Positions 4,627-15,947 of a stretch of DNA of 24,000 bases are shown here, piece by piece (the first letter of the stretch is position 1; each line of letters begins with the position of its first letter). Position numbers and translations under genes: made by a program. The notes beneath the pieces were generated by a model. That model made no database searches. It saw only the letters and a list, made by a program, of their open reading frames with translations, and was not told the origin of the DNA. The stretch is taken from the NCBI RefSeq assembly GCF_009660225.1, contig NZ_CP045920.1:2406079-2430078 (forward strand), in the 5' to 3' direction. The DNA comes from Pseudactinotalea sp. HY158 (GTDB lineage Bacteria > Actinomycetota > Actinomycetes > Actinomycetales > Beutenbergiaceae).

Positions 4627-4902
4627 GTGTTGGCTCACTCCTGGTTCGTGGGGGGTGAATACCGCCGCCTGCAGGTGGGGCCAACCGGCGGACGATCTTC
4701 GTGGACGCGTGTCGCATCAGTGAGAGGGCTGAGTGCACACGGGTACAGCGGGTTAGTCTGCCAGATGCCGGGGGCCTGCTGCCACTCGGCCCCTCCCGCG
4801 GGACTGTGGCGCGGGTCACAGGCGGCGACCTCGCGCGGGCAGATGGCCCAGGTGTCCGGCGCCACGGGGCCCGCGCCGGGGCCATCCAGACGAGCGAACG
4901 GG

Positions 4903-6051
4903 TCAGGTCGCGGCGCGTGAAGTGTTCAGCCATGCGCGCTCAGTCGAGTCGTCGTAGAGAACGACATGCACAGACTCGGCGGCGTCGGAGGGGTCATCCA
5001 ACCCGGCCGCGCTGAAGAACTTCTCTCGAACTTCACCCTGCGTCAGAACTGAGGAGCCACCGTTGAACCAGTAGATGATCAACTCTGGTCGATACTCGAA
5101 CCGTTCGTCATCCGTGGAACGCTCTCGCCCAAGCGACTCCGCGATGTGCCGCCACCACCAGCGATCAGATTCGCCGAGCGAACAGCCGAAGATGATGTAG
5201 AGCTCCGTGTCAGCGAAGAGGTGCTTGTAGCGGCGCTCGTTCTGCGCCCAGAACGGCTTCGCGAGCCGCAAACCGCGGTCCTGATTGCCGGCCGTTCGCA
5301 CGGGCTCATCGATCCCGAACAGGAGTGATCGCGGAATGCTCTGGTGCCCGTGCGGGTGAACAACGTCGGTCATGACGTAGGAGGAGAACGTGTCTCCCGG
5401 CCGAACGTGGGCGTTCGCCACCTCGGACGGGTTGCCCTTGAAGACGAAGTTGCGATCGACCGTCCGGTACGGGAGTGGATCGAACTGCTTCTGATCCAGG
5501 TAGACGAAGTCATCAAGCAACGGCGTGTAGTTGAAGTTGACGAACAGGAAGTTGTACACGTCGAAGTTCTGCACGCGCCCTGGAAACCCCATGCGGCGAT
5601 AGACCTCGGGCTCGAGGTCGCCGAGGAAGCCGCTGAGGGACCCCACCGCCAACGATCGGTCCATCGAGTCCGATCCCAAGGCCGTGAGCAGGTCGCTCGG
5701 AACTGCGAGACTCAGGAACTCCGAGAACTCACCCTGCATGTCCCGGAGGGCCTGCGAAAGGTCAGTCGCGCGCCAAGGGTCCCGCGCCAACAGGTCGGCA
5801 ACGACGCCTTCGACGTCACTCCAGTCCTCCTTCCCTTCTTCGCGGAGCTTCTCCATCTCCTGAAGGATCGGATTCCCCTCATCGAATGAACGAAGCTTCA
5901 GGAAGTGATAGAAGCTGACGTACCTCGTGTCGACAGCCGAGCCGTAGTCGGATAGAGCCTGAACGTCGAACCCGTTGCCGACGAAAGCGATGATGTTGTG
6001 CTGGTTGCCTGGACTGTCGAAGCCCGAGGCCCGGTACTCGCGATGGCCCAT
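4903..6051 (-). CDS. AbiH-like (abortive infection AbiH family) protein, third gene of the islet operon
   Basis: The 382-aa ORF carries the AbiH-family motif series as I remember it: IIAFVGNGFDV (aa 20-30), TRYVSFYHFL, FVNFNYTPLLD (aa 170-180), VVHPHGH (aa 230-236), LLFGID, and LYIIFGCSLGESDRWWWRHI (aa 284-303). The ATG lies 3 nt after the upstream stop (TAG-AAG-ATG). GC is markedly lower than in the rest of the window. Confidence 0.7.
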   Translation of the reverse strand: MGHREYRASGFDSPGNQHNIIAFVGNGFDVQALSDYGSAVDTRYVSFYHFLKLRSFDEGNPILQEMEKLREEGKEDWSDVEGVVADLLARDPWRATDLSQALRDMQGEFSEFLSLAVPSDLLTALGSDSMDRSLAVGSLSGFLGDLEPEVYRRMGFPGRVQNFDVYNFLFVNFNYTPLLDDFVYLDQKQFDPLPYRTVDRNFVFKGNPSEVANAHVRPGDTFSSYVMTDVVHPHGHQSIPRSLLFGIDEPVRTAGNQDRGLRLAKPFWAQNERRYKHLFADTELYIIFGCSLGESDRWWWRHIAESLGRERSTDDERFEYRPELIIYWFNGGSSVLTQGEVREKFFSAAGLDDPSDAAESVHVVLYDDSTERAWLNTSRAAT

Positions 6052-6054
6052 CTT

Positions 6055-6939
6055 CTAACCCCGACGCTCATCGGGGCACGGAACAACAACGCAGTCGGTC
6101 AAGGTATCCCTCCACAACTCGAAGACATGGTCCATCTCGGCCGGATCGACGAACGTGTCGAACGTCGACTTGGCGCGCTCGACGTTCACTCGGTCGCGGA
6201 GGACCCCGGCCGTCCACTCGATGCTCTGGCGGACGTCCGCCCCGACCTCGGCGTGGTCGGCGAACTCGGCGATCACCCGGGCCGTGTCGACCGGATCGGC
6301 CACGGCCATGAGCCGCCATAGGTCGCCGAGGTCCTTGTCGCGGACCTGCCCCGTGCGCGGCGCCCGCAGCCGTTCTCCGATCTTGGAGCCCTTTGCGAGG
6401 ATCAGCGCAGGGACCTCGGCCACGTTGACCCGCGCCGACAGTCGCGCGTCGGCGAGGTCGGTGATCGTCAGGGGTGATCGATTGAAGGCCGCAAGCTCTA
6501 GACCCAAGGCGTTTCCGACCGCGAGCTTGCCGTGCGCTGGTTGCAGAGCGGGCACCCCCCGCCTGGTCCGGCTCGCCGTGCCCGACAAGCCGTGCGGCGC
6601 GAGCAGGTCGATCTTCTCCCGGAACGCCCGCGTCCCGTCCGGCTCGTCGTACGACTCTCGCCCCCACAGTCCCGGCCGCGCCGTGGTGCGATGTTCGTAG
6701 CCGGCTTCGGCCAGCAGTGCCTCGATGCTGGGCACATCGCCGACCAACCCCGGCGTGACGCCGAGGTCGCCGTCTCCGGTCGGCATCCTCGGCACGTCGA
6801 GGTCCATCGTGCGCAAGAGGACGGCGTGGGCTCCGACCAACGTCAGCGATTCGGCATGGGCCGCAAGGACACCGACGACGTTGATGATCGCACGGCGGCT
6901 CCACTCGATCTCGGTGCGCGGCGCCTTGAGGTCCCTCAT
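6055..6939 (-). CDS. Nucleotidyltransferase-fold protein, AbiEii-like putative toxin (second gene of the islet operon)
   Basis: The 294-aa ORF has a Pol-beta-type NTase pattern: LVGAHAV (aa 34-40), TGDGDLGV (DxD, aa 54-61) and EKIDLL (third acidic residue, aa 108-113). Its C-terminal motif AKGSKIGERLRAPRTGQVRDKDLGDLWRL resembles the AbiEii/DUF1814 K..R...RDxxDL motif. The start ATG overlaps the upstream HTH gene stop (ATGA at 6936..6939). Confidence 0.6.
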   Translation of the reverse strand: MRDLKAPRTEIEWSRRAIINVVGVLAAHAESLTLVGAHAVLLRTMDLDVPRMPTGDGDLGVTPGLVGDVPSIEALLAEAGYEHRTTARPGLWGRESYDEPDGTRAFREKIDLLAPHGLSGTASRTRRGVPALQPAHGKLAVGNALGLELAAFNRSPLTITDLADARLSARVNVAEVPALILAKGSKIGERLRAPRTGQVRDKDLGDLWRLMAVADPVDTARVIAEFADHAEVGADVRQSIEWTAGVLRDRVNVERAKSTFDTFVDPAEMDHVFELWRDTLTDCVVVPCPDERRG

Positions 6940-7697
6940 GCCACTCGCCGCCCCAGCAGGATGTCGGCCTGTTCGGCCATGCGGTCGATGCCGCCGTAGG
7001 CGTCGATGACGACCTGGTCGCGTGCCACCACCGTGACGTCATCGATCGTGGTGCGCCCGAGCTCACACACCCCGTCGAACGGGATCAGGGTGACGCGCAT
7101 GCCGAAGGAGACCGGGTCTTTGCGCACCAGGCCCGCAGTCTGGGCTGCGCGTTCGACGTCCTCGACGTAGAGGACCGGCCATGCCTCGCCCGCGCTGGAG
7201 CGATAGAGGTTCGCAGCGGCATCGCCGGTCACGGCGTAGTCCACGCCTGCGGGGCCCAAGGCATCGGCAAGCTCGAATGCGGTCGCGCCGGCCTTGAAAC
7301 CGACCGCTCCGGCCCGACGAGTCAGCCGAGCGGCGCGCCCCGCCCGAAACAGGAGATCGGCTTCTTTGCCGGCGACCGTCCGGCCGCGGTCATCGATGAG
7401 CCCGATCCGCGCCCAGCGCTGCCGCCAGGCGTCGACGGCCGGCGTCATCTCGATGCCCAACGTGGGATCGAAGGCCAACCGGGCGGCTGCGATCGCCCCG
7501 ACGTCGGCGGCACCGGTGAATCCGATCGGCTCCCCCAGGACCGTCAGGATCTCCTGAGCCAGATCGAACGACGGGCTGACCGCACCGGACTCGATCCGGG
7601 TCACCGTCGTCGGGGCAACGTCGACCAACGCCGCGAGTTGTCGAGCACTGAGCCCGTTCACGCGACGCAGCATCGAGATGCGCTCCGCAAGGTCCAC
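6936..7697 (-). CDS. XRE-family HTH protein with an AbiEi-like C-terminal domain, putative antitoxin/regulator (first gene of the islet operon)
   Basis: 253-aa ORF. The N-terminus LAERISMLRRVNGLSARQLAALVDVAPTTVTRIESGAVSPSFDLAQEIL is a Cro/C1 (XRE) helix-turn-helix. The remaining ~190 aa (..VDYAVTGDAAANLY..VLYVED..VARDQVVIDAYGG..) resemble the C-terminal neutralising domain of AbiEi-type antitoxins. The start is GTG 7697..7695. Confidence 0.6.
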   Translation of the reverse strand: MDLAERISMLRRVNGLSARQLAALVDVAPTTVTRIESGAVSPSFDLAQEILTVLGEPIGFTGAADVGAIAAARLAFDPTLGIEMTPAVDAWRQRWARIGLIDDRGRTVAGKEADLLFRAGRAARLTRRAGAVGFKAGATAFELADALGPAGVDYAVTGDAAANLYRSSAGEAWPVLYVEDVERAAQTAGLVRKDPVSFGMRVTLIPFDGVCELGRTTIDDVTVVARDQVVIDAYGGIDRMAEQADILLGRRVA

Positions 7698-7703
7698 GAG
7701 CCA

Positions 7704-7732
7704 AGCCTACAGCGGCGTTGCAAATACGCAAC
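7704..7732 (-). promoter_or_regulatory. Putative leaderless-type promoter with an overlapping palindromic operator for the islet operon
   Basis: The minus strand reads TTGCGT (7731..7726), a 16-nt spacer, TAGGCT (7709..7704, fits TANNNT), 6 nt, then the GTG start at 7697. The inverted repeat GTTGC-N6-GCAAC (7717..7732) overlaps the -35 element. Confidence 0.4.
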
Positions 7733-7862
7733 ATAGTCGAAGGGTCCGGGGCTCTTCGCTGTTGACGGTCTGCGGGTCGTCGGCACGCTCCGGGCCGTAC
7801 ACACCGTCCTGATAGGCCTCACGTTGTGTTCTCGCTGAACATCACGAAGCTCTCGAAGAACG

Positions 7863-8975
7863 TCAGCGCACTCGCCGGCCCCGCAGGAAGACGGCGCTCG
7901 GGCGGGCGAGCACACCGATGTCGGTCCGCGGATCCTCCGGGTAGACGACGACGTCCGCCGGCGCCCCCTCGGCGATCCCGGGCGCCCCGAGATACGTGCG
8001 CGCGGCCCACGTCGCGGCGGCGAGGACATCGGCGGCGGGCACCCCCGCGGCCACGAGCTCGGCGGCCTCGTCGGCGATCCGGCCGTGCCGGATCAGGCCC
8101 CCGGCGTCGGTGCCCACGAGGATCTGCACGCCGGCGGCGTGCATCGCGGCCACCTGCTCGTGGCGGCGGGCGTGCAGGCGTCGCATCCGTGCGGCATAGC
8201 GGGGATACCTCACACCGGCCTGGTCGGCGATCGCGGCGAAGTTGGCGATCTGCACGAGCGTGGGGGTGACGGCGACACCCGCCTCCGCGGCCCGGTCGAG
8301 CTGGGCGGGTGTCATGCCGGTGCCGTGCTCGATGCAGTCGACGCCGGCGTCGAGCAGATCCTCGACCGTCTCGGTGGCGAAGGTGTGCACCATGACCCGG
8401 GCGCCGTGGCCGTGGGCCGCCGCCACTCCCTCCCGCAGTTGCCTCGCCGTCCACAGGGGCCGCAGGTCGGCGGCGGCGCCGTCGCTCCGGTCGATCCAGT
8501 CCCCCACGATCTTGACCCAGCCGTCGCCGGCGCGGGCCTGGGCGGCCATCGCGGCCGGCAGGTCGTCCGGGTCGTCGAGCTCGTGGGCGTAATCGCGCAC
8601 GTACCGCTTCGGACGCGCGAGGTGCCGGCCGGCGCGGATGAGGCGGGGCATGCCCGTCTCGCGCCGGATCCACGCCGTGTCGGCCGGTGACCCGGCATCG
8701 CGCACGAGCAGCACCCCGGCGCGCACGTCCGCGTCCGCCTGGGCGCGGGTCGCGGCCTCATCGATCGCGCCGAGTGGGCCGAGGCCGAGGTGGCAGTGCA
8801 CATCGACGAGTCCGGGGGTGATCCAGCCCAACAGCGACTCGGGCGACTCGGGCGCCTCACCCGACTCCCCCGACTCCCAGCCGGCAGCGGACGCGAAGGT
8901 GAGCCGGTCGCCGTCGATACGAACCCGCTCGCGCTCCACCCCACCCGTGAGGACGACGCCGCTCAGCGTGGTCAC
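7863..8975 (-). CDS. Metal-dependent amidohydrolase family protein (Rv2915c-like, conserved neighbour of ffh)
   Basis: The 370-aa ORF has the HxH metal motif (GLVDVHCHLG), later His and Asp ligands (VMVHTF, CIEHGT, LVGTDAG), and strong G/C at third codon positions. Confidence 0.85.
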   Translation of the reverse strand: MTTLSGVVLTGGVERERVRIDGDRLTFASAAGWESGESGEAPESPESLLGWITPGLVDVHCHLGLGPLGAIDEAATRAQADADVRAGVLLVRDAGSPADTAWIRRETGMPRLIRAGRHLARPKRYVRDYAHELDDPDDLPAAMAAQARAGDGWVKIVGDWIDRSDGAAADLRPLWTARQLREGVAAAHGHGARVMVHTFATETVEDLLDAGVDCIEHGTGMTPAQLDRAAEAGVAVTPTLVQIANFAAIADQAGVRYPRYAARMRRLHARRHEQVAAMHAAGVQILVGTDAGGLIRHGRIADEAAELVAAGVPAADVLAAATWAARTYLGAPGIAEGAPADVVVYPEDPRTDIGVLARPSAVFLRGRRVR

Positions 8976-8981
8976 GGGCGG

Positions 8982-10577
8982 CTAGTTCTTGAGGAAGTCG
9001 CCGAGGTCGCTCGGGAGCTTGCCCGGGTCGAAGTCCGCGGGCTCGGGCGCCTGCCCGAACGCCGACCCGGCGCTCGCCTGGGATTGCGAGGCGGCCTCGC
9101 GTTCCTGCTGGGCGCGCTTGGCGGGATTGCCGGACTTGCCCTTCTTGCGCTTGGGCGCCGGCGCCATCCGGCCGCGGGACTTCTTGCCGCTGCCGGGCAG
9201 GGACCCCATGCCGCCCGCACCGGGCATCCCGCCCATGCCGGGCATGCCCCCCATGCCGGGCATCCCACGGCCCCCGCTCTTGGCCATCGAACGCATCATG
9301 GTCTTGGCCTGGTCGAACCGCTGGAGCAGCTGGTTGATCTCGGTCACGGTGGTGCCGGATCCGCGGGCGATGCGGCTGCGGCGGGAGCCGTTGAGGATCT
9401 TCGGATTGTCGCGCTCACCGGGGGTCATCGAGTTGATGATCGCCTCGATCCGGTCGACCTCGCGCTCGTCGAAGTTCTCGAGCTGGTCGCGCATCTGCCC
9501 CATGCCGGGCAGCATCCCGAGCATCTTCTTCATCGATCCGAGCTTGCGCAGCTGCTGCATCTGGGCCATGAAGTCGGCGAGGGTGAAGTCGCCGTCGCCC
9601 GAGATCTTGTGGGCGATCTCGGCGGCCTGCTGCTCGTCGAAGGCCTTCTCGGCCTGCTCGATCAGGGTGAGGATGTCGCCCATGTCGAGGATGCGCGAGG
9701 CCATCCGGTCCGGGTGGAAGCGCTCGAAGTCGGAGAGCTTCTCACCGGTCGAGGCGAACAGCACGGGGCGGCCGGTGACCGTCCGGATCGACAGGGCCGC
9801 CCCGCCGCGGGCGTCGCCGTCGAGCTTGGAGAGCACGACCCCGGTGAAGCCGACGCCGTCACGGAAGGCCTCGGCCGTCGTCACGGCGTCCTGGCCGATC
9901 ATCGCATCGACCACGAAGAGGGTCTCGTCGGGGTTCACGGCGTCGCGGATGTTCGCGGCCTGCCGCATGAGTTCCTCGTCGACGCCGAGGCGTCCGGCGG
10001 TGTCGACGATCACGACGTCGTGGAGCTTGGCGCGGGCGTGCTCGACGCCGGCGCGGGCCACGAGCACCGGGTCGCCGACGCCGTTGCCGGGCTCGGGCGC
10101 CCACACGGCCACGCCGGCCTGCTCGCCCACGACCTGCAGCTGGGTCACGGCGTTGGGTCGCTGGAGGTCGGCCGCGACGAGGAGCGGGGTGTGCCCCTGC
10201 TCGCGCAGCCAGACGCCGAGCTTCCCGGCCAGCGTCGTCTTCCCGGCGCCCTGGAGGCCGGCGAGCATGATGACCGTCGGCGGGCGCTTCGCGAGGGTCA
10301 GCTCCCGGGACTCGCCGCCGAGGATCTCGATGAGTTCGTCGTTGACGATCTTGACGATCTGCTGACCGGGCTGGAGCGCCTTGGACAGGTCGGCGTCCTT
10401 GGCCTTCTCCCGCACCGCGCTGGTGAAGGCGCGCACGGCGGGCACGGCCACGTCGGCGTCGAGCAGGGCCCGGCGCACCTCGCTGATCGTCGTGTCGATG
10501 TCGGCGTCGGTGAGCCGGCCCTTGCCGCGCAGGGACTTGAGGCTGGCGGTGAGCCGGTCGGAAAGGCTGGCGAACAC
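8982..10577 (-). CDS. ffh: Signal recognition particle protein Ffh
   Basis: MFASLSDRLTASLKSLRGKGRLTDADID..., G1 GLQGAGKTTLAGKL, DTAGRL, SKLDGDARGGAALS, a Met/Gly-rich M domain (MPGMGGMPGMGGMPG) and a basic tail. GTG start, with GAAGGA 9 nt upstream. Confidence 0.97.
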   Translation of the reverse strand: MFASLSDRLTASLKSLRGKGRLTDADIDTTISEVRRALLDADVAVPAVRAFTSAVREKAKDADLSKALQPGQQIVKIVNDELIEILGGESRELTLAKRPPTVIMLAGLQGAGKTTLAGKLGVWLREQGHTPLLVAADLQRPNAVTQLQVVGEQAGVAVWAPEPGNGVGDPVLVARAGVEHARAKLHDVVIVDTAGRLGVDEELMRQAANIRDAVNPDETLFVVDAMIGQDAVTTAEAFRDGVGFTGVVLSKLDGDARGGAALSIRTVTGRPVLFASTGEKLSDFERFHPDRMASRILDMGDILTLIEQAEKAFDEQQAAEIAHKISGDGDFTLADFMAQMQQLRKLGSMKKMLGMLPGMGQMRDQLENFDEREVDRIEAIINSMTPGERDNPKILNGSRRSRIARGSGTTVTEINQLLQRFDQAKTMMRSMAKSGGRGMPGMGGMPGMGGMPGAGGMGSLPGSGKKSRGRMAPAPKRKKGKSGNPAKRAQQEREAASQSQASAGSAFGQAPEPADFDPGKLPSDLGDFLKN

Positions 10578-10632
10578 GGATGCGGTCCTTCGAGGCGTCG
10601 GGTATCGGGTCGTGCTGCTACAGGATAGGTGC

Positions 10633-11865
10633 TCAGCTCAGGAGGGCGTCCACGAAGTCCGCGGCGCTGAAGGGCGCGAGGTCGTCCGGGCCCTCCCCCA
10701 GGCCGACGAACTTCACGGGCACGCCGAGTTCGCGCTGGACGGCGATGACGATCCCGCCCTTGGCGGTGCCGTCGAGCTTGGTGAGCACGATCCCGGTCAC
10801 GCCGACGGCCTCGGCGAAGACCTGGGCCTGGCGCAGGCCGTTCTGGCCGGTCGTGGCGTCGAGCACGAGCAGCACCTCGCTCACGGGTGCCGCGCGCCCG
10901 ACCACGCGGGCGACCTTGCCGAGTTCGTCCATGAGGCCGGCCTTGTTCTGCAGCCGGCCGGCCGTGTCGACGATCACCACGTCGGCGCCGTCGGCGCGAC
11001 CGGTGGCGACCGCGTCGAAGGCGACGGCGGCCGGGTCGGCGCCGTCCCGGTCGGAGCGGACGACGGGCACCCCGACCCGCTCGCCCCACGTCTGCAGTTG
11101 GTCGGCGGCGGCGGCCCGGAAGGTGTCGGCGGCGCCGAGGACGACGTCACGCTCCTCGGCCACGAGCAGGCGCGCGAGCTTTCCGGCGGTGGTGGTCTTG
11201 CCGGTGCCGTTGACGCCGACCATGAGGATGGTCGCCGGGTGCGGCTCGCCGTCGTCGCCGAGGCGGGTCGCGGTCTCGAGGCTCCGGTCCATGGCCGGGT
11301 TCACGAGATCGAGCAGGAGGGTGCGCAGTTCCCCGCGCACGGAGTCCGGGTCGAGGGCGCCGGCCACGCGCGAGCGGGTGCGCAGCGCGCTCATGAGCTC
11401 ATCGGTCGGGGCCGAGCCGACGTCGGCGATCAGGAGGGTCTCCTCGAGTTCCTCCCAGTCGGCCTCGGTCAGGTGGTCGCGGGAGAGCACCGCGAGCAGG
11501 GCGCTGCCGAGGGCCCCGGAGCGGGCGAGCCGGCTGCGCAGACGCTCCATCCGGGTGCCGGCGCTCTCGGGGCGCTCGAGGGTAGGCGCCGCCTGTTCGA
11601 TCGCCCCGTCGATGTCGACGGTGTCGAGCACGCCGGCGGACTCGTCGCCCTCCGGCGGCGCGAGGGTGTCGACCCCGCCGGTGCCGGGCCCCTCGCCGTC
11701 CGACTCGGGTCGCTCAGCGGTGCCGGCGGGCGGTGTCTGCCGGGTCGGCGGCACCTCGGGGCCGCGCCGGCCACCGCGGCCGGGACGCAGGAACACGACC
11801 GTGCCGACCACGAGCACGACGATGGCGAGGGCGATCCACAGGAGCCAGGAGAAGGTATCCGTCAC
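10633..11865 (-). CDS. ftsY: Signal recognition particle receptor FtsY (with an N-terminal membrane helix)
   Basis: N-terminal TM helix WLLWIALAIVVLVVGTVVF, an acidic linker, then the SRP GTPase NG domain (GVNGTGKTTTAGKLA, DTAGRLQNK, TKLDGTAKGG). GTG start 11865, with AGGGGA upstream. Confidence 0.95.
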   Translation of the reverse strand: MTDTFSWLLWIALAIVVLVVGTVVFLRPGRGGRRGPEVPPTRQTPPAGTAERPESDGEGPGTGGVDTLAPPEGDESAGVLDTVDIDGAIEQAAPTLERPESAGTRMERLRSRLARSGALGSALLAVLSRDHLTEADWEELEETLLIADVGSAPTDELMSALRTRSRVAGALDPDSVRGELRTLLLDLVNPAMDRSLETATRLGDDGEPHPATILMVGVNGTGKTTTAGKLARLLVAEERDVVLGAADTFRAAAADQLQTWGERVGVPVVRSDRDGADPAAVAFDAVATGRADGADVVIVDTAGRLQNKAGLMDELGKVARVVGRAAPVSEVLLVLDATTGQNGLRQAQVFAEAVGVTGIVLTKLDGTAKGGIVIAVQRELGVPVKFVGLGEGPDDLAPFSAADFVDALLS

Positions 11866-11989
11866 ATCCCCTAGTCTGCCTCAACGACCGCGCGCCACCG
11901 AGCGGGGACCGATCCCCACACCCCGGGTGGTCGTCCTCCCCACTCACGAAGCAGGGCCCGTTCCCCGCACGAAGCAGGGGCCGTCGCGG

Positions 11990-12244
11990 TCAGGCGCGTG
12001 GGTGCGGCTCCGCCTCGCCCAGGGTCCACAGATCGCCGACCCGCAGATCACCCGTGCGGGCGGCGGGCTCGGCGATCGCGGCGGCCTCGGCCCGCACGGA
12101 GGTGAAGGCGGATCGGTCCCGCAGTGCGCCCCGATAGCGCGACCAGGCGTGCTTCCAGTCCCCACCGCGCGTCCCCAGGATCACGACGATCACGATCAAG
12201 GCGCACACGATGGCCGAGACGGTGGCGAGGACGGCTGCGGTCAT
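11990..12244 (-). CDS. Small hypothetical membrane protein (single N-terminal TM helix)
   Basis: The 84-aa ORF starts at an ATG and has the TM segment AAVLATVSAIVCALIVIVVILG. Third codon positions are almost all G/C when read by eye, consistent with real coding. No recognisable family. Confidence 0.55.
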   Translation of the reverse strand: MTAAVLATVSAIVCALIVIVVILGTRGGDWKHAWSRYRGALRDRSAFTSVRAEAAAIAEPAARTGDLRVGDLWTLGEAEPHPRA

Positions 12245-12353
12245 GTTCCGATTCTCACCCGCCCCGCCGCCGCGCCGGACACGGACACCCGGCCCGTCAC
12301 CGAATCTTCACGTGACCTCGCCCACCCTCACCCATCCGCACTCAGGGGCGGGC

Positions 12354-15300
12354 TCAGGCGGGTTCCCCCTGACCGAGCCGCTGGGAGATGAGGGTCGTGA
12401 CGCCGTCCCCACGCATCGTCACGCCGTAGAGCGCATCGGCAACCTCCATCGTGCGCTTCTGGTGGGTGATGACGATGAGCTGGGAGTCCTCGCGCAGCTC
12501 GCGGAAGATGTCGATGAGGCGCCCGAGGTTCGTGTCGTCGAGCGCGGCCTCGACCTCGTCCATGACGTAGAACGGGCTCGGCCGGGCCTTGAAGATCGCC
12601 ACGAGGATCGCGACCGCCGTGAGCGAGCGTTCCCCGCCGGACAGCAGCGAGAGCCGCTTGACCTTCTTGCCGGGCGGGCGCGCCTCCACCTCGATACCGG
12701 TGGTGAGCAGGTCGCCGGGGTCCGTGAGCAGGAGTCGGCCCTCGCCGCCGGGGAAGAGCCGGGCGAACACCCGCTCGAACTGCACCGCGGTGTCGGCGAA
12801 CGCGTCGGCGAAGACCTGCTCGACCCGCTCGTCGATCTCGGCCACGATCTGCAGCAGGTCCGCGCGCGAGGACTTGATGTCGGCGAGCTGACGGCTGAGG
12901 AAGTTGTGCCGTTCCTCGAGCGCCGCGTGCTCCTCGAGCGCGAGTGGGTTGACCTTGCCGAGGAGCGCGAGGGCGCGCTCGGCCTTCCGGAGCCGCTTCT
13001 CCTGCTCCGCGCGGACGAACGGCACGGGCGCGGCCTCCGCGTCGTCCTCCGCGCCCGCTGTGCCCGACGGGCCCGAGGTGGCCGGGATCAGCAGGTGCGG
13101 GCCGTAGGACTCGACGAGTTCCTCGGGGTCGAGCCCGAGCTCGTCGGCGGCCCGGGTGGCGAGCGCCTCGATCGTCGCGCGCTGGCCGGCCCGCGCCACC
13201 TCATCCTTATGGACGACGTCCGTCAGCTCCGCGTGTTCCCTCGCCAGGGCGTCGACCTGGGTGCGGACGGCGCCGAGTTCCGTCTCCCGGGCGGTCCGGG
13301 CCGCCTCGGCCTCGTCGCGGGCGCGCTGGGCCGCGGCGAGGGAGGTGTCGATCGCCGCGAGTGCGCGTTCGGCCCCCGCCTCGACGAGGTCCGCGCTCAC
13401 CCGTTGGGCCGCCCGGCCCGGGCGCGCTCGGCGGCGGCCTGGCGGTGCGGCGCTCGGTGGCCGCGACCGCTCGAGGGCGGCGGCGCGCCCGGATCGCGCG
13501 GAGCCGTTCCTCGAGGGTGCGCATGACGAGCCGGCATCGGTCTCGGCGCCGCGCGCGGTCGTGGCGGCGACGGCGGCCTCGTCGCGGGCCTCCGCCGCGG
13601 CCGTGGCCGGGTCGACACCGGCGGCGGGCCCGGCACCGGCGGCGGGCTCGTCGCGGGCCTCCCCCTCGGCGGCGGCGAGGGTGGCCGTGAGTTCGGCGAG
13701 CTCGGCGGCGATGGTCGACCGGCTCGCGTTCGCGTCCTCGATCGCCCCCGCGGTGCGCTCGGCCTCGGCGTGGCCGGCGCGCATGGTCGATCCCAGCTGC
13801 GCGAGGCGTTCGGCCACGGCGGCGAGCGCGGCGTCGGAGTCGTGCAGGGCGGCCAGGGCGGCATCGGCGTCGGACTGGGCGAGCTGCAGCGCCTCGCGCG
13901 CGGGCTCGAGGGCGGTCTCGATCCCGGCCAGTTCCCGCTCGGCGGCCGTGACCGCGGACGCGGCCTCGTCGCGGGCGGCGTGGAGTTCGAGCACGCTCGG
14001 GGAGTCGCCGGCGCCGCCGCTGGCGCGCGTCGCCGTGACGACGTCGCCGCCGCGGGTGACGGCGACGACGCCGGGGTCGCCGGCCCGGGCCACGTCGGCG
14101 GCTTCGGTCAGATCGTCCACGACCACGACCCCCTCGAGGAGGAGGAGAACGGCCCCGGCCACGTCGGGCTCCGGCGTGACGAGGTCGCTCGCCCACTCCC
14201 CCGCGACCGGTGCCGGCCGCCGCGCCGGCGCGCCGTCCCCGGCGATGACCAGGTGGGCGGTTCCGGACTCGTCGGCACGGACCCGCTCGAGCGCCGCGGC
14301 GGCGTCGTCGATGGTCTCGGCGACCGCGGCGTCCGCCCAGGTGCCGAGCGCCGCGGCGATCGCGTTCTCGTAGCCGGCGCGGACCTGCAGCCGGTCGGCG
14401 AATGCGCCGAGGATGCCGGGCACGTCGCCCTCGAGCAGGGTGCCGGTGGCGTCGCGGCGGGTGAGGCTCAGGTCGAGGGCGTCCCGGCGGGCCGTCCAGG
14501 TGGCGAGCTCGCCGCCGGTACCGCGGCGTCGTTCGGTCAGGCTCGTGACCGTCTCCTCCGCCGCAGTGAGCCGGGCCAGGGCGGCCTCGTGGGCGGTGTC
14601 GAGGTCCTCCTCGCCGGCCTCGGCACCGACCGCCTCCTGTTCGAGTCGGGCATAGGCGGACCCCGCCTCCTCGGCGCGGGAGCGGGCCGCGGCATGCCCG
14701 GCGCGCAGCCGCTCCACCTCGGCCTCGGTCGCCTCGAGTCGGCTGCGGGCCGCCGCGACCCGGCCCGTGAGGCGTGCGAGATGCTCACGGCGGTCGGCGG
14801 CATCCCGGTGCACCCGGGCGAGGGCCTTCTCGGCCTCGGCCGCGACCCCCTCCGCGTGCCTGCGTCGTTCGACGGCGGTCTCGAGCGCGGCAGCGGCCGC
14901 GGTGTGCTCGGCGGTCAGCTCGCCCTCGGTGCCACGGGCGCGGGCGGCCTGCGCGTCGAGGTCACGGGGATCCGGCCCGGTGACCGGTGCCCGGTCGTCC
15001 TCCTCGAGGAGGCGGCCCCGCTCGGCGGCGAGGGTGGCCGTGCCGCGCAGCCGTTCGCGCAGGCTCGAGAGCCGGAACCACATCTCGGCGGCCTCGTTGA
15101 GCGCGGGGGCGGCCGCGGCCGCCTCGCCCTCGAGGGCGGTGAGCCGGGCCCGGGCCTTGAGCTGGGAGTCCTCGACCTGCTCGCGGCGGGCCCGCAGGGC
15201 GTTCTCGTCGGCCTGCTCGGCCTCGAGGGCGGCCGTGAGCTGCACATAGTCGTCGGCGACCAGCCGCGCCTTCGCGTCCCGCAGATCCGCCTGCACCACG

Positions 15301-15947
15301 TGGGCGCGGCGGGCGATATCGGCCTGCTTGGCCAGCGGTCCGAGTTGGCGGCGGATCTCCGTCACGAGGTCGCCCACCCGGGCGAGGTTGGCGGCCATCC
15401 CGTCGAGCTTGCGCAGCGCCTTCTCCTTGCGCTTGCGGTGCTTGAGCACGCCGGCGGCCTCCTCGATGAAGCCGCGCCGGTCCTCGGGGGTGGCGCTGAG
15501 CATGGCGTCGAGGCGGCCCTGGCCGACGATCACGTGCATCTCCCGGCCGAGGCCCGAGTCGGAGAGGAGCTCGGCGATGTCGAGGAGCCGGCACGAGGTG
15601 CCGTTGATCGCGTACTCGCTGCCGCCCCCCTGGAACAGCGTGCGCGAGATCGTCACCTCGGTGTAGTCGATGGGGAGGGCGCCGTCGGTGTTGTCGATCG
15701 TGAGCGAGACCTCGGCGCGGCCGAGCGGCGGCCGCGACGAGGTCCCCGCGAAGATGACGTCGGCCATGTTGCCGCCGCGCAGGGTCTTGGCCCCCTGCTC
15801 GCCCATGACCCAGGCGAGCGCGTCCACGACGTTCGACTTGCCCGACCCGTTCGGCCCCACGACGGCGGTGATGCCCGGCTCGAAGTGAAGGGTCGTCGCC
15901 GAGGCGAAGGACTTGAATCCCCGCAGCGTCAACGTCTTCAGATGCAC
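12354..15947 (-). CDS. smc: Chromosome partition protein SMC
   Basis: 1197-aa ORF with Walker A GPNGSGKSN, long Ala/Glu/Arg coiled coils, a hinge, the C-terminal signature LSGGE and Walker B FYVMDEVEAALD. GTG start. See the finding on an anomalous patch at 13395..13535. Confidence 0.97.
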   Translation of the reverse strand: MHLKTLTLRGFKSFASATTLHFEPGITAVVGPNGSGKSNVVDALAWVMGEQGAKTLRGGNMADVIFAGTSSRPPLGRAEVSLTIDNTDGALPIDYTEVTISRTLFQGGGSEYAINGTSCRLLDIAELLSDSGLGREMHVIVGQGRLDAMLSATPEDRRGFIEEAAGVLKHRKRKEKALRKLDGMAANLARVGDLVTEIRRQLGPLAKQADIARRAHVVQADLRDAKARLVADDYVQLTAALEAEQADENALRARREQVEDSQLKARARLTALEGEAAAAAPALNEAAEMWFRLSSLRERLRGTATLAAERGRLLEEDDRAPVTGPDPRDLDAQAARARGTEGELTAEHTAAAAALETAVERRRHAEGVAAEAEKALARVHRDAADRREHLARLTGRVAAARSRLEATEAEVERLRAGHAAARSRAEEAGSAYARLEQEAVGAEAGEEDLDTAHEAALARLTAAEETVTSLTERRRGTGGELATWTARRDALDLSLTRRDATGTLLEGDVPGILGAFADRLQVRAGYENAIAAALGTWADAAVAETIDDAAAALERVRADESGTAHLVIAGDGAPARRPAPVAGEWASDLVTPEPDVAGAVLLLLEGVVVVDDLTEAADVARAGDPGVVAVTRGGDVVTATRASGGAGDSPSVLELHAARDEAASAVTAAERELAGIETALEPAREALQLAQSDADAALAALHDSDAALAAVAERLAQLGSTMRAGHAEAERTAGAIEDANASRSTIAAELAELTATLAAAEGEARDEPAAGAGPAAGVDPATAAAEARDEAAVAATTARGAETDAGSSCAPSRNGSARSGRAAALERSRPPSAAPPGRRRARPGRAAQRVSADLVEAGAERALAAIDTSLAAAQRARDEAEAARTARETELGAVRTQVDALAREHAELTDVVHKDEVARAGQRATIEALATRAADELGLDPEELVESYGPHLLIPATSGPSGTAGAEDDAEAAPVPFVRAEQEKRLRKAERALALLGKVNPLALEEHAALEERHNFLSRQLADIKSSRADLLQIVAEIDERVEQVFADAFADTAVQFERVFARLFPGGEGRLLLTDPGDLLTTGIEVEARPPGKKVKRLSLLSGGERSLTAVAILVAIFKARPSPFYVMDEVEAALDDTNLGRLIDIFRELREDSQLIVITHQKRTMEVADALYGVTMRGDGVTTLISQRLGQGEPA

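Follow-up and report, generated by a model that had tools for sequence, protein, structure and literature searches.

The question raised by this locus is whether three closely packed genes form a single composite anti-phage system or two modules that share a promoter. The locus lies within a 24,000-nt stretch of the genome of Pseudactinotalea sp. HY158 (contig NZ_CP045920.1, positions 2,406,079 to 2,430,078; here called the window). Its genes encode a predicted DNA-binding protein with a helix-turn-helix (HTH) of the XRE type (g1), a nucleotidyltransferase of the Pol-beta type (g2), and an AbiH-family protein (g3). A first-pass annotation, made from the letters alone, had proposed a hard-wired composite of all three and had named two stacked systems under one autoregulated promoter as the alternative. 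The comparative data presented here favor the alternative. It is probable that g1-g2 is an AbiE/MenAT-like toxin-antitoxin (TA) or abortive-infection pair that stabilizes a mobile element and anchors a cargo slot, the AbiH gene being independent cargo under the same promoter.

The layout on which the proposal was built was reproduced. The three open reading frames (ORFs) are present on the minus strand, the g1 stop and g2 start overlap as ATGA (6939..6936), and the g2/g3 junction reads TAG(6057..6055)-AAG-ATG(6051..6049), with the g3 ATG 3 nt past the g2 TAG. The GC content of g1 (0.70), g2 (0.69), and g3 (0.61) is below that of the neighboring genes (0.71 to 0.77), and the GC content at third codon positions (GC3) is 0.80 to 0.86 compared to 0.92 to 0.96 for the housekeeping neighbors. 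Since both values are lowered in all three genes, the segment from ~7733 to 4903 was concluded to be a foreign, horizontally acquired island of 2.8 kb.

A conserved pair with a variable third position

The major data on the organization of the locus came from a scan for g2 in one genome per species, which returned 37 loci from many actinobacterial families. In 36 of the 37 species genomes g1 lies directly upstream of g2 with a 4-bp overlap, and the pair shows 72 to 87% (about 80%) amino acid identity, with 71 to 81% nucleotide identity to the window. The conserved block extends from 7733, 36 nt ahead of the g1 start, to ~6107, about 15 codons short of the g2 stop. The contents of the slot beyond this block vary. 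AbiH follows g2 in one species genome only, that of Nocardioides sp. LHD-245 (L026; 80% nucleotide identity over 7733..4913), and in one metagenome contig (L016) in which g2 is frameshifted and AbiH intact. A metagenome scan with g3 yielded only two loci, both already found. In L031 the pair is kept and AbiH is reduced to a 26-aa remnant. The slot otherwise holds PDC-S56 (1.7e-242; in five loci, one with a fragment only), a TIR gene of the ThsB type with a HIT protein gene, a Ser/Thr kinase of the PD-T4-6 type, SoFic (encoded on the opposite strand), or unannotated genes that could be new defense candidates. The cargo genes are low in GC. About 11 of the 37 genomes have an empty slot, in which case the gene directly after g2 encodes a DUF255 thioredoxin-domain protein.

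The same independence is seen from the side of AbiH. For homologues at 60 to 74% identity, eight of nine genomic contexts lack g1-g2; these are next to an nSTAND NTPase gene, after a DEAD helicase gene, next to a CAP12/PCTIR TIR gene, within a TraG/TrwC conjugative element, close to a Schlafen-AlbA gene, and three others. Similarity to the stand-alone homologues begins at the AbiH ATG, and the proteins of this clade do not differ in length or domain content between loci that have g2 close by and loci that do not. Judged by gene context, AbiH would thus act as a stand-alone single gene. These counts did not support the hard-wired three-gene system. The three genes were almost never together elsewhere, close to the complete lack of co-occurrence that the first-pass annotation had listed as speaking against its own proposal.

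Two of the stand-alone contexts are close arrangements in their own right. One close AbiH homologue lies 25 nt past a CAP12/PCTIR TIR-domain gene (L013/L014, 5179-7197), and another lies 100 nt past an nSTAND NTPase gene encoding 1,356 aa (L007, 1290-6602). These neighbors possibly represent other AbiH partnerships or the stacking of systems in defense islands.

Distant homologues of g2 (29 to 40% identity) were found on 20 plasmids from Streptomyces, Rhodococcus, Brevibacterium, and Variovorax. All eight inspected plasmid homologues have a co-directional DNA-binding partner upstream that shares the C-terminal domain of g1, and no tightly linked third gene was found at these eight loci. The partner on pAP13 has an XRE HTH; the others have a central winged helix of the IclR/MarR type. 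The latter, from loci L054 and L056 to L061, are ~375 aa in length and consist of an N-terminal region of no assigned function, the winged helix, and the g1 C-terminal domain. These pairs may be of the COG4861-COG4849 type, a pair mentioned in PMC3985639. The nucleotidyltransferase of pAP13 matched PF08843 at 0.0085 (16.5 bits compared to a cutoff of 22.5) in the region of motifs III and IV only, and it gave no match to the PDB.

Two features of the slot point in the other direction. Most of the cargo is co-directional with the pair and starts 15 to 100 nt past g2, so regulatory coupling of the cargo to g1-g2 is possible. In addition, g2 is intact in 10 of 10 genomes with co-directional, recognized defense cargo and in 8 of 12 genomes without cargo, a difference that is not significant and is compatible with some functional link. 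These observations keep in consideration an integrated sensor-effector system in which g1-g2 would be a common sensing or signaling front end over interchangeable effectors, with g2, for example, producing a nucleotide signal or altering the effector, in the manner of cyclic oligonucleotide-based antiphage signaling systems (CBASS). The succession of a conserved pair and diverse effector-type genes fits such a system, as do the lack of a recognizable independent promoter before g3 and the best Foldseek match of the g2 model in the PDB, a weak one to a cGAS/DncV-like nucleotidyltransferase (CD-NTase). It is opposed by the cargo-free genomes, by the distant plasmid pairs with no linked third gene, and by an AbiH clade that mostly stands alone or by unrelated partners and has no extra sensor domain. 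Furthermore, the catalogues list PDC-S56, PD-T4-6, SoFic, and ThsB with no partner of this kind, some of the cargo (SoFic and several further genes) lies on the opposite strand, AbiH is retained in L016 despite the frameshifted g2, and the tight g2/g3 junction was traced to a secondary deletion (see below). The comparison with CBASS leads in the same direction. The g1-g2 loci are like CBASS in that a nucleotidyltransferase gene is followed by interchangeable effectors, including TIR-type and NAD-related ones. They are unlike CBASS in that g2 has no significant CD-NTase similarity (best match, CdnG; E, 1.1e-2; TM score, 0.21), the effectors have no recognizable signal-sensing domain and are found without a nucleotidyltransferase elsewhere, and many loci are effector-free. 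The PADLOC CBASS models gave no match at this locus, and it was not classed as CBASS-like. We consider the sensor-effector system distinctly unlikely.

The AbiH-family gene

The assignment of g3 to the AbiH family was confirmed by Pfam (PF14253; 7.6e-18; 66 bits compared to a cutoff of 30.9; residues 24 to 310 of 382), and the same family is carried by all listed g3 homologues. The protein is 100% identical to the "AbiH family protein" of Pseudactinotalea sp. HY158 at NCBI. The motif series noted previously (GNGFD, FNYT, HPHG, and FGCSLGESD) consists of residues that are invariant in 28 homologues, among them N172/N174 and H232/H234. g3 is like AbiH of Lactococcus lactis, a single-gene abortive-infection system, in passing the Pfam threshold and in having the N-terminal GNGFD Rossmann-like motif and the N/H motifs, and its clade is likewise found as stand-alone genes in defense islands and conjugative elements. 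Lactococcal AbiH has been reported on integrative and conjugative elements (ICEs) (PMC13064643). Unlike lactococcal AbiH, g3 belongs to a remote actinobacterial clade (the PADLOC AbiH models missed g3 and 27 relatives at E ≤ 1) and probably shares a transcription unit with another module. AbiH has been described as SIR2-like from HHpred and AlphaFold (PMC13064643; bioRxiv 10.1101/2024.09.18.613514), and by analogy g3 may be a SIR2-like protein with NADase activity. A profile of the 28 homologues searched against PDB sequences gave no match, to SIR2 or otherwise.

As a side observation, the NCBI proteins of Pseudactinotalea sp. HY158 listed for g2 and g1 (P0001, P0391) are only 96 to 97% identical to the window, in contrast to the full identity of g3. 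Either these are cluster representatives from a sister strain or the identity was computed over another start; both are possible.

Promoter, operator, and the g2/g3 junction

A recognizable promoter and operator were found only ahead of g1, as had been claimed, and no other promoter-like element was evident before g2 or g3. It is plausible for this reason that g3 is co-transcribed with g1-g2. The candidate operator (Table 1) has an unchanged position in all 36 loci with upstream sequence, while the flanking bases vary, and nucleotide similarity to the other loci starts at ~7733. All 36 loci share one layout, namely, the palindrome lying over a -35 element (TTGCAT or TTGCGT), followed by a -10 element (TAGACT or TAGGCT) and the start codon 6 to 7 nt later. 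Because the -10 sits so close to the start codon, a leaderless g1 mRNA is implied. The conserved layout thus points to a leaderless transcript with an operator, presumably for g1, which would bind the GTTGCA-N4-TGCAAC palindrome. A generic sigma-70 promoter scan was negative, as expected for an actinobacterial promoter. An alternative g1 start at the ATG at 7734..7732 was rejected, as it is in another reading frame and not conserved; GTG 7697 aligns with an ATG or GTG start in the 36 loci.

The junction between g2 and g3 had been described as leaving no room for a ribosome-binding site. This did not hold, since a GGGG Shine-Dalgarno sequence (6062..6059) lies within the 3' end of g2, 7 nt ahead of the g3 ATG. 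The junction was compared by alignment with L026, L016, L031, L017, and L022. In the sister cassettes L026 and L016, a TGA terminates g2 after 282 codons, and a ~70-nt spacer with a GGAG ribosome-binding site lies between this stop and AbiH. Relative to these, the window has a 1-nt deletion that removes the g2 TGA and a further 21-nt deletion that shrinks the spacer, and its g2 reads 12 codons past the old stop to a TAG inside the former ribosome-binding region. The tight junction was therefore deduced to be secondary and lineage specific, and translational coupling was rejected as the ancestral design. The resulting g2 extension contains a CCCCGA/TCGGGG hairpin (6076..6059) along with the g3 Shine-Dalgarno sequence, which this short hairpin could occlude. 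The hairpin appears in the predicted fold, yet the region is no more stable than its shuffles (z, -0.06). Just past the g3 stop is an imperfect inverted repeat, I4, which is a possible terminator of the unit; it lacks a T-run, and a scan for terminators was negative.

The nucleotidyltransferase

The claim that g2 has a Pol-beta nucleotidyltransferase pattern together with C-terminal motifs of the AbiEii type was well supported by residue conservation. A scan of 1.84 billion representative proteins gave 680 relatives of g2, 55 of which were aligned, down to 25% identity. In these 55, G36, D56, K183, K186, K202, D203, and D206 were invariant and T54, D58, D111, and R190 were at least 90% conserved. 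The motifs described for DUF1814/AbiEii proteins are hG[G/S] (I), DhD with an Arg (II), K..(aromatic)..R (III), and +DxxD (IV) (PMC3985639). They correspond in g2 to G36-A37, D56-G-D58 (with R51 at -5), K183-x6-R190, and K202-D203-L-G-D206, respectively, so that AbiE/MenAT and g2 can be described together as hG[GSA], DxD, K-x6-R, and +DxxD. The distance from K183 to R190 equals that between K173 and R180 of AbiEii. The AlphaFold2 (AF2) model of g2 (predicted local distance difference test [pLDDT], 95.5) has an alpha-beta-alpha-beta minimal nucleotidyltransferase core and six C-terminal helices.

The T54-G55-D56 sequence places a Thr two residues ahead of the first catalytic Asp. T39 of MenT1 and S78 of MenT3 occupy the same position. 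Both residues are known phospho-acceptors (PMC11375011), and T65 of AbiEii, two residues before D67, is auto-phosphorylated (bioRxiv 10.64898/2026.01.19.700257).

A number of results weigh against a relationship to AbiEii. The spacing from G to D between motifs I and II is 19 residues in g2 compared to 15 in AbiEii, and the motif II Arg is one residue farther away (-5 compared to -4). In searches of Pfam, PADLOC, and NCBIfam, g2 had no match at E ≤ 1, to AbiEii or otherwise, and the Pfam gathering score for PF08843 was not reached. Only 2 of the 55 relatives weakly matched PF08843 (best, 0.012), while the nearest Pfam family was NTP_transf_8 (PF12281), matched by 13 of the 55 (best, 5e-8); a literature search on NTP_transf_8/PF12281 gave no papers. 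Neither g1 nor g2 matched the sequences of solved MenT, AbiEii, or AbiEi structures, and a profile of the 55 relatives found nothing among PDB sequences even at E ≤ 10. Foldseek searches of the model against the PDB and BFVD gave weak generic matches only (CD-NTase, poly(A) polymerase, FKRP/LicD, and ANT(4')), with no MenT structure among the top 50 PDB matches. Since g2 has no match in Pfam, PADLOC, or NCBIfam, the "AbiEii-like" label rests on motifs. It stands as far as the four motifs and the Thr at -2 are concerned and fails at the level of profiles. On this analysis g2 is a candidate toxin. A phage origin for g2 was considered and dropped, as there was no match among 50,697 phage records.

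The generic structural matches raise the question of whether g2 could instead be a nucleotidyltransferase acting on small molecules, for example, an antibiotic-modifying enzyme, which g1 would regulate and which would be neither a toxin nor a defense gene. Kanamycin nucleotidyltransferases share the layout of a nucleotidyltransferase domain and a helical domain, and the Foldseek likeness extends to the aminoglycoside nucleotidyltransferase ANT(4')-IIb and to LicD/FKRP enzymes. All of these matches, however, have a TM score below ~0.3 and an E value above 1e-3. The C-terminal K..R and +DxxD motifs have been described as specific to DUF1814 (PMC3985639), the neighborhood consists consistently of defense and mobile-element genes, and the frequent loss of g2 with retention of g1 (see below) would be unexpected for a resistance gene and its regulator. 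We give this explanation very little credence.

The DNA-binding partner

The prediction that g1 consists of an XRE HTH and a C-terminal part of ~190 aa was verified by matches to HTH_3 (1.5e-9; residues 13 to 58) and HTH_31 (2.4e-8), the ~190 aa having no Pfam match. The HTH spans residues ~2 to 58 and the C-terminal domain residues ~88 to 253, with the motif YAVTG..AA..(10)..hhYVxD ... Q...D...G..R. No match to the C-terminal domain was found in Pfam, NCBIfam, or PDB sequences, and a profile of g1 with its distant partners found only HTH proteins in the PDB and NCBIfam. The AbiEi-like label given to g1 was not upheld, as its HTH is of the XRE type and there is no match to AbiEi (COG5340; AbiEi_1-4 in Pfam). 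This also counts against the TA reading, since AbiEi has a winged helix, although the layout in two domains is analogous and distant plasmid partners do have a winged helix. Modeling of g1 with AF2 on 46 orthologues (77 to 87% identity) gave an unusable result (pLDDT, 53) that left the C-terminal domain without a model. g1 is a candidate autorepressor and antitoxin.

Decay of the pair and the mobile element

Indirect support for the TA reading was obtained from broken copies. Among 35 evaluable genomes, 10 have a frameshifted or truncated g2, and several of these 10 are isolates. Damage to g1 was seen in 4 of the 35, always along with g2, so that g2 alone is broken in six and g1 alone in none (one-sided sign test, ~0.02). 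These counts were corrected by hand, with the removal of three flags that were alignments past the normal stop and one that was a contig edge. The pattern is that expected if g2 is harmful without g1, the toxin then decaying first.

In most loci a 54-aa N-terminal fragment of DUF255 is encoded 300 to 500 bp upstream of g1, and many also have a full DUF255 gene downstream. The two copies of the DUF255 5' end form direct repeats of 28 to 216 bp with 90 to 100% identity (loci L017 to L053), and the breakpoint falls at the CHWCH active-site codons. In larger insertions the cargo is followed by an HTH_17 excisionase-like gene, another HTH_3 gene, and a gene for a TrwC relaxase, while many copies have shrunk to g1-g2, some with cargo and some without; the L017 insertion holds g1-g2 only. 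The 8-kb flanks of the g1-g2 insertions yielded no identified integrase. Because the repeats bound the insertions and the larger versions carry transfer genes, g1-g2 was deduced to mark one end of an integrative element, and the repeats suggest an element family targeting the DUF255 gene in Actinobacteria. The window copy does not conform to this, which is a further point against the reading preferred here. It has no DUF255 fragment, flanking direct repeat, or nearby tRNA, it does not have the ~280-bp left-end sequence common to the other loci, and it lies at the amidohydrolase/rpsP intergenic site.

The position of the pair at one insertion end, next to an att-like repeat, could also mean that g1-g2 is a nontoxic regulatory or maintenance module of the element, such as an immunity repressor with an enzyme controlling excision or transfer, alongside which cargo accumulates. 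The excisionase-like, HTH_3, and relaxase genes of the larger versions would suit this role, and g1 looks like a textbook XRE repressor whose operator is conserved. Against it, the pair persists in minimal insertions stripped of transfer genes, such as L017, in the present window away from the usual site, and on plasmids in unrelated contexts. The asymmetric decay, in which g2 goes first and g1 is never broken alone, is the behavior of a TA pair, and the catalytic motifs of g2 match those whose mutation abolishes the toxicity of AbiEii (PMC3985639). We therefore judge a purely element-regulating role to be unlikely.

Proposed mechanism and relation to known systems

We hypothesize that the island combines two modules within a single transcription unit. 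The first, g1-g2, would be a mobile bicistronic pair working like the AbiE/MenAT TA systems. By analogy, the DUF1814-like g2 would carry out toxic nucleotide addition to tRNA or another RNA. The XRE HTH of g1 would repress the leaderless promoter from the palindrome, and its C-terminal domain would neutralize g2, plausibly by inducing the auto-phosphorylation of T54. The pair would stabilize its host integrative element and might also act in its own right to abort infection by phages. The second module would be the exchangeable cargo slot right after g2, occupied here by a putative SIR2-like, single-gene abortive-infection effector of the AbiH family, which would act independently of g1-g2 and is probably co-transcribed with it.

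It is also conceivable that the pair does more than share a promoter with its cargo. As a common control unit for swappable abortive-infection effectors (AbiH/SIR2-like, TIR plus HIT, kinase, or PDC-S56), g1-g2 would form a "TA-gated defense cassette" on the DUF255-targeting element. This could come about through phage-induced loss of g1 repression, derepressing the whole operon, or through direct nucleotidylation of, or signaling to, the effector by g2. We attach a small probability to such gating.

The preferred TA reading is consistent with the features g1-g2 has in common with AbiE/MenAT, the DUF1814 superfamily systems classed as type IV and now argued to be type VII. Both are bicistronic, with the two-domain DNA-binding protein first, the nucleotidyltransferase second, and a stop/start overlap; both have inverted repeats in the promoter, through which AbiEi exerts negative autoregulation and which in g1-g2 form a candidate operator, and both are carried on mobile elements. 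The slot can be likened to the P2/P4 satellite hotspots, SXT-ICE hotspot 5, and Tn7-like cargo regions, where unrelated anti-phage systems of lower GC interchange between conserved flanks. It is unlike them in that the anchor is a TA-like pair, the breakpoint lies in the last ~15 codons of a nucleotidyltransferase gene, and the host element inserts into the DUF255 5' end in Actinobacteria. A limited literature search found no paper on a cargo slot anchored by g1-g2.

Neither half of the island is categorically new, since AbiH-family genes and nucleotidyltransferase TA pairs are both known. What is new is a widespread actinobacterial HTH-nucleotidyltransferase family missed by the standard models, the new C-terminal domain of its DNA-binding partner, and its role as the conserved flank of a defense-cargo slot. 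The pair would represent a branch, with XRE- or winged-helix-type partners, that Pfam, PADLOC, and NCBIfam overlook with their present models. The conserved Thr at -2 suggests that the antitoxin-induced auto-phosphorylation shown for MenT and AbiEii may reach past DUF1814 proper. The pair also marks a compact slot that could be mined for new anti-phage genes in Actinobacteria. Functional integration is not shown by tight gene junctions alone.

Feature coordinates and surroundings

Table 1. Features of the island in the window and of the related loci
Feature	Position or loci	Strand	Details
g1	6936..7697	minus	253 aa, GTG start at 7697
g2	6055..6939	minus	294 aa
g3	4903..6051	minus	382 aa
Palindromic operator candidate GTTGCGTATTTGCAAC	7717..7732	minus	16 bp, consensus GTTGCA-N4-TGCAAC, overlaps -35 TTGCGT (7731..7726)
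-10-like hexamer TAGGCT (TANNNT)	7704..7709	minus	16 nt past -35, 6 nt ahead of GTG start
g2 C-terminal extension CVVVPCPDERRG	6058..6093	minus	12 codons, translated former intergenic spacer
Imperfect inverted repeat I4	4831..4897	minus	Just past g3 stop; 22-nt arms, 73% complementarity, 23-nt gap
Catalogued or candidate defense cargo	L028 8931-10967, L025, L036, L023 (C7 family); L022 8862-10243; L018 8884-10611; L037 2780-3985		PDC-S56; ThsB-TIR + HIT/PDC-M50A protein; PD-T4-6 kinase; SoFic
Unannotated cargo genes (examples)	L001 7183-8450; L003 6929-8414; L030 9616-11748
Loci with g2 only broken	L038, L042, L044, L046, L047, L049
Loci with both genes broken	L048, L050, L052, L053
DUF255 (Thioredox_DsbH) direct repeats (examples)	L026 6764-6963 and 10606-10805; L029 6795-6957 and 9468-9630

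The island is bordered upstream by an amidohydrolase gene and ffh and downstream by rpsP, a KH-domain gene, rimM, and trmD. A 44-nt direct repeat with 73% identity (6925-6968 and 7852-7895) takes in the C-terminal codons of both g1 (LLGRRVA*) and the amidohydrolase gene (FLRGRRVR*). It may have arisen by chance in GC-rich DNA or be left over from the recombination that brought the island here. Farther away, a possibly coding 603-aa ORF with high GC3 was observed on the plus strand (10580-12391) between ffh and smc, where an ftsY-type gene is expected, flanked by minus-strand ORFs at 8982-10577 and 12354-15947.

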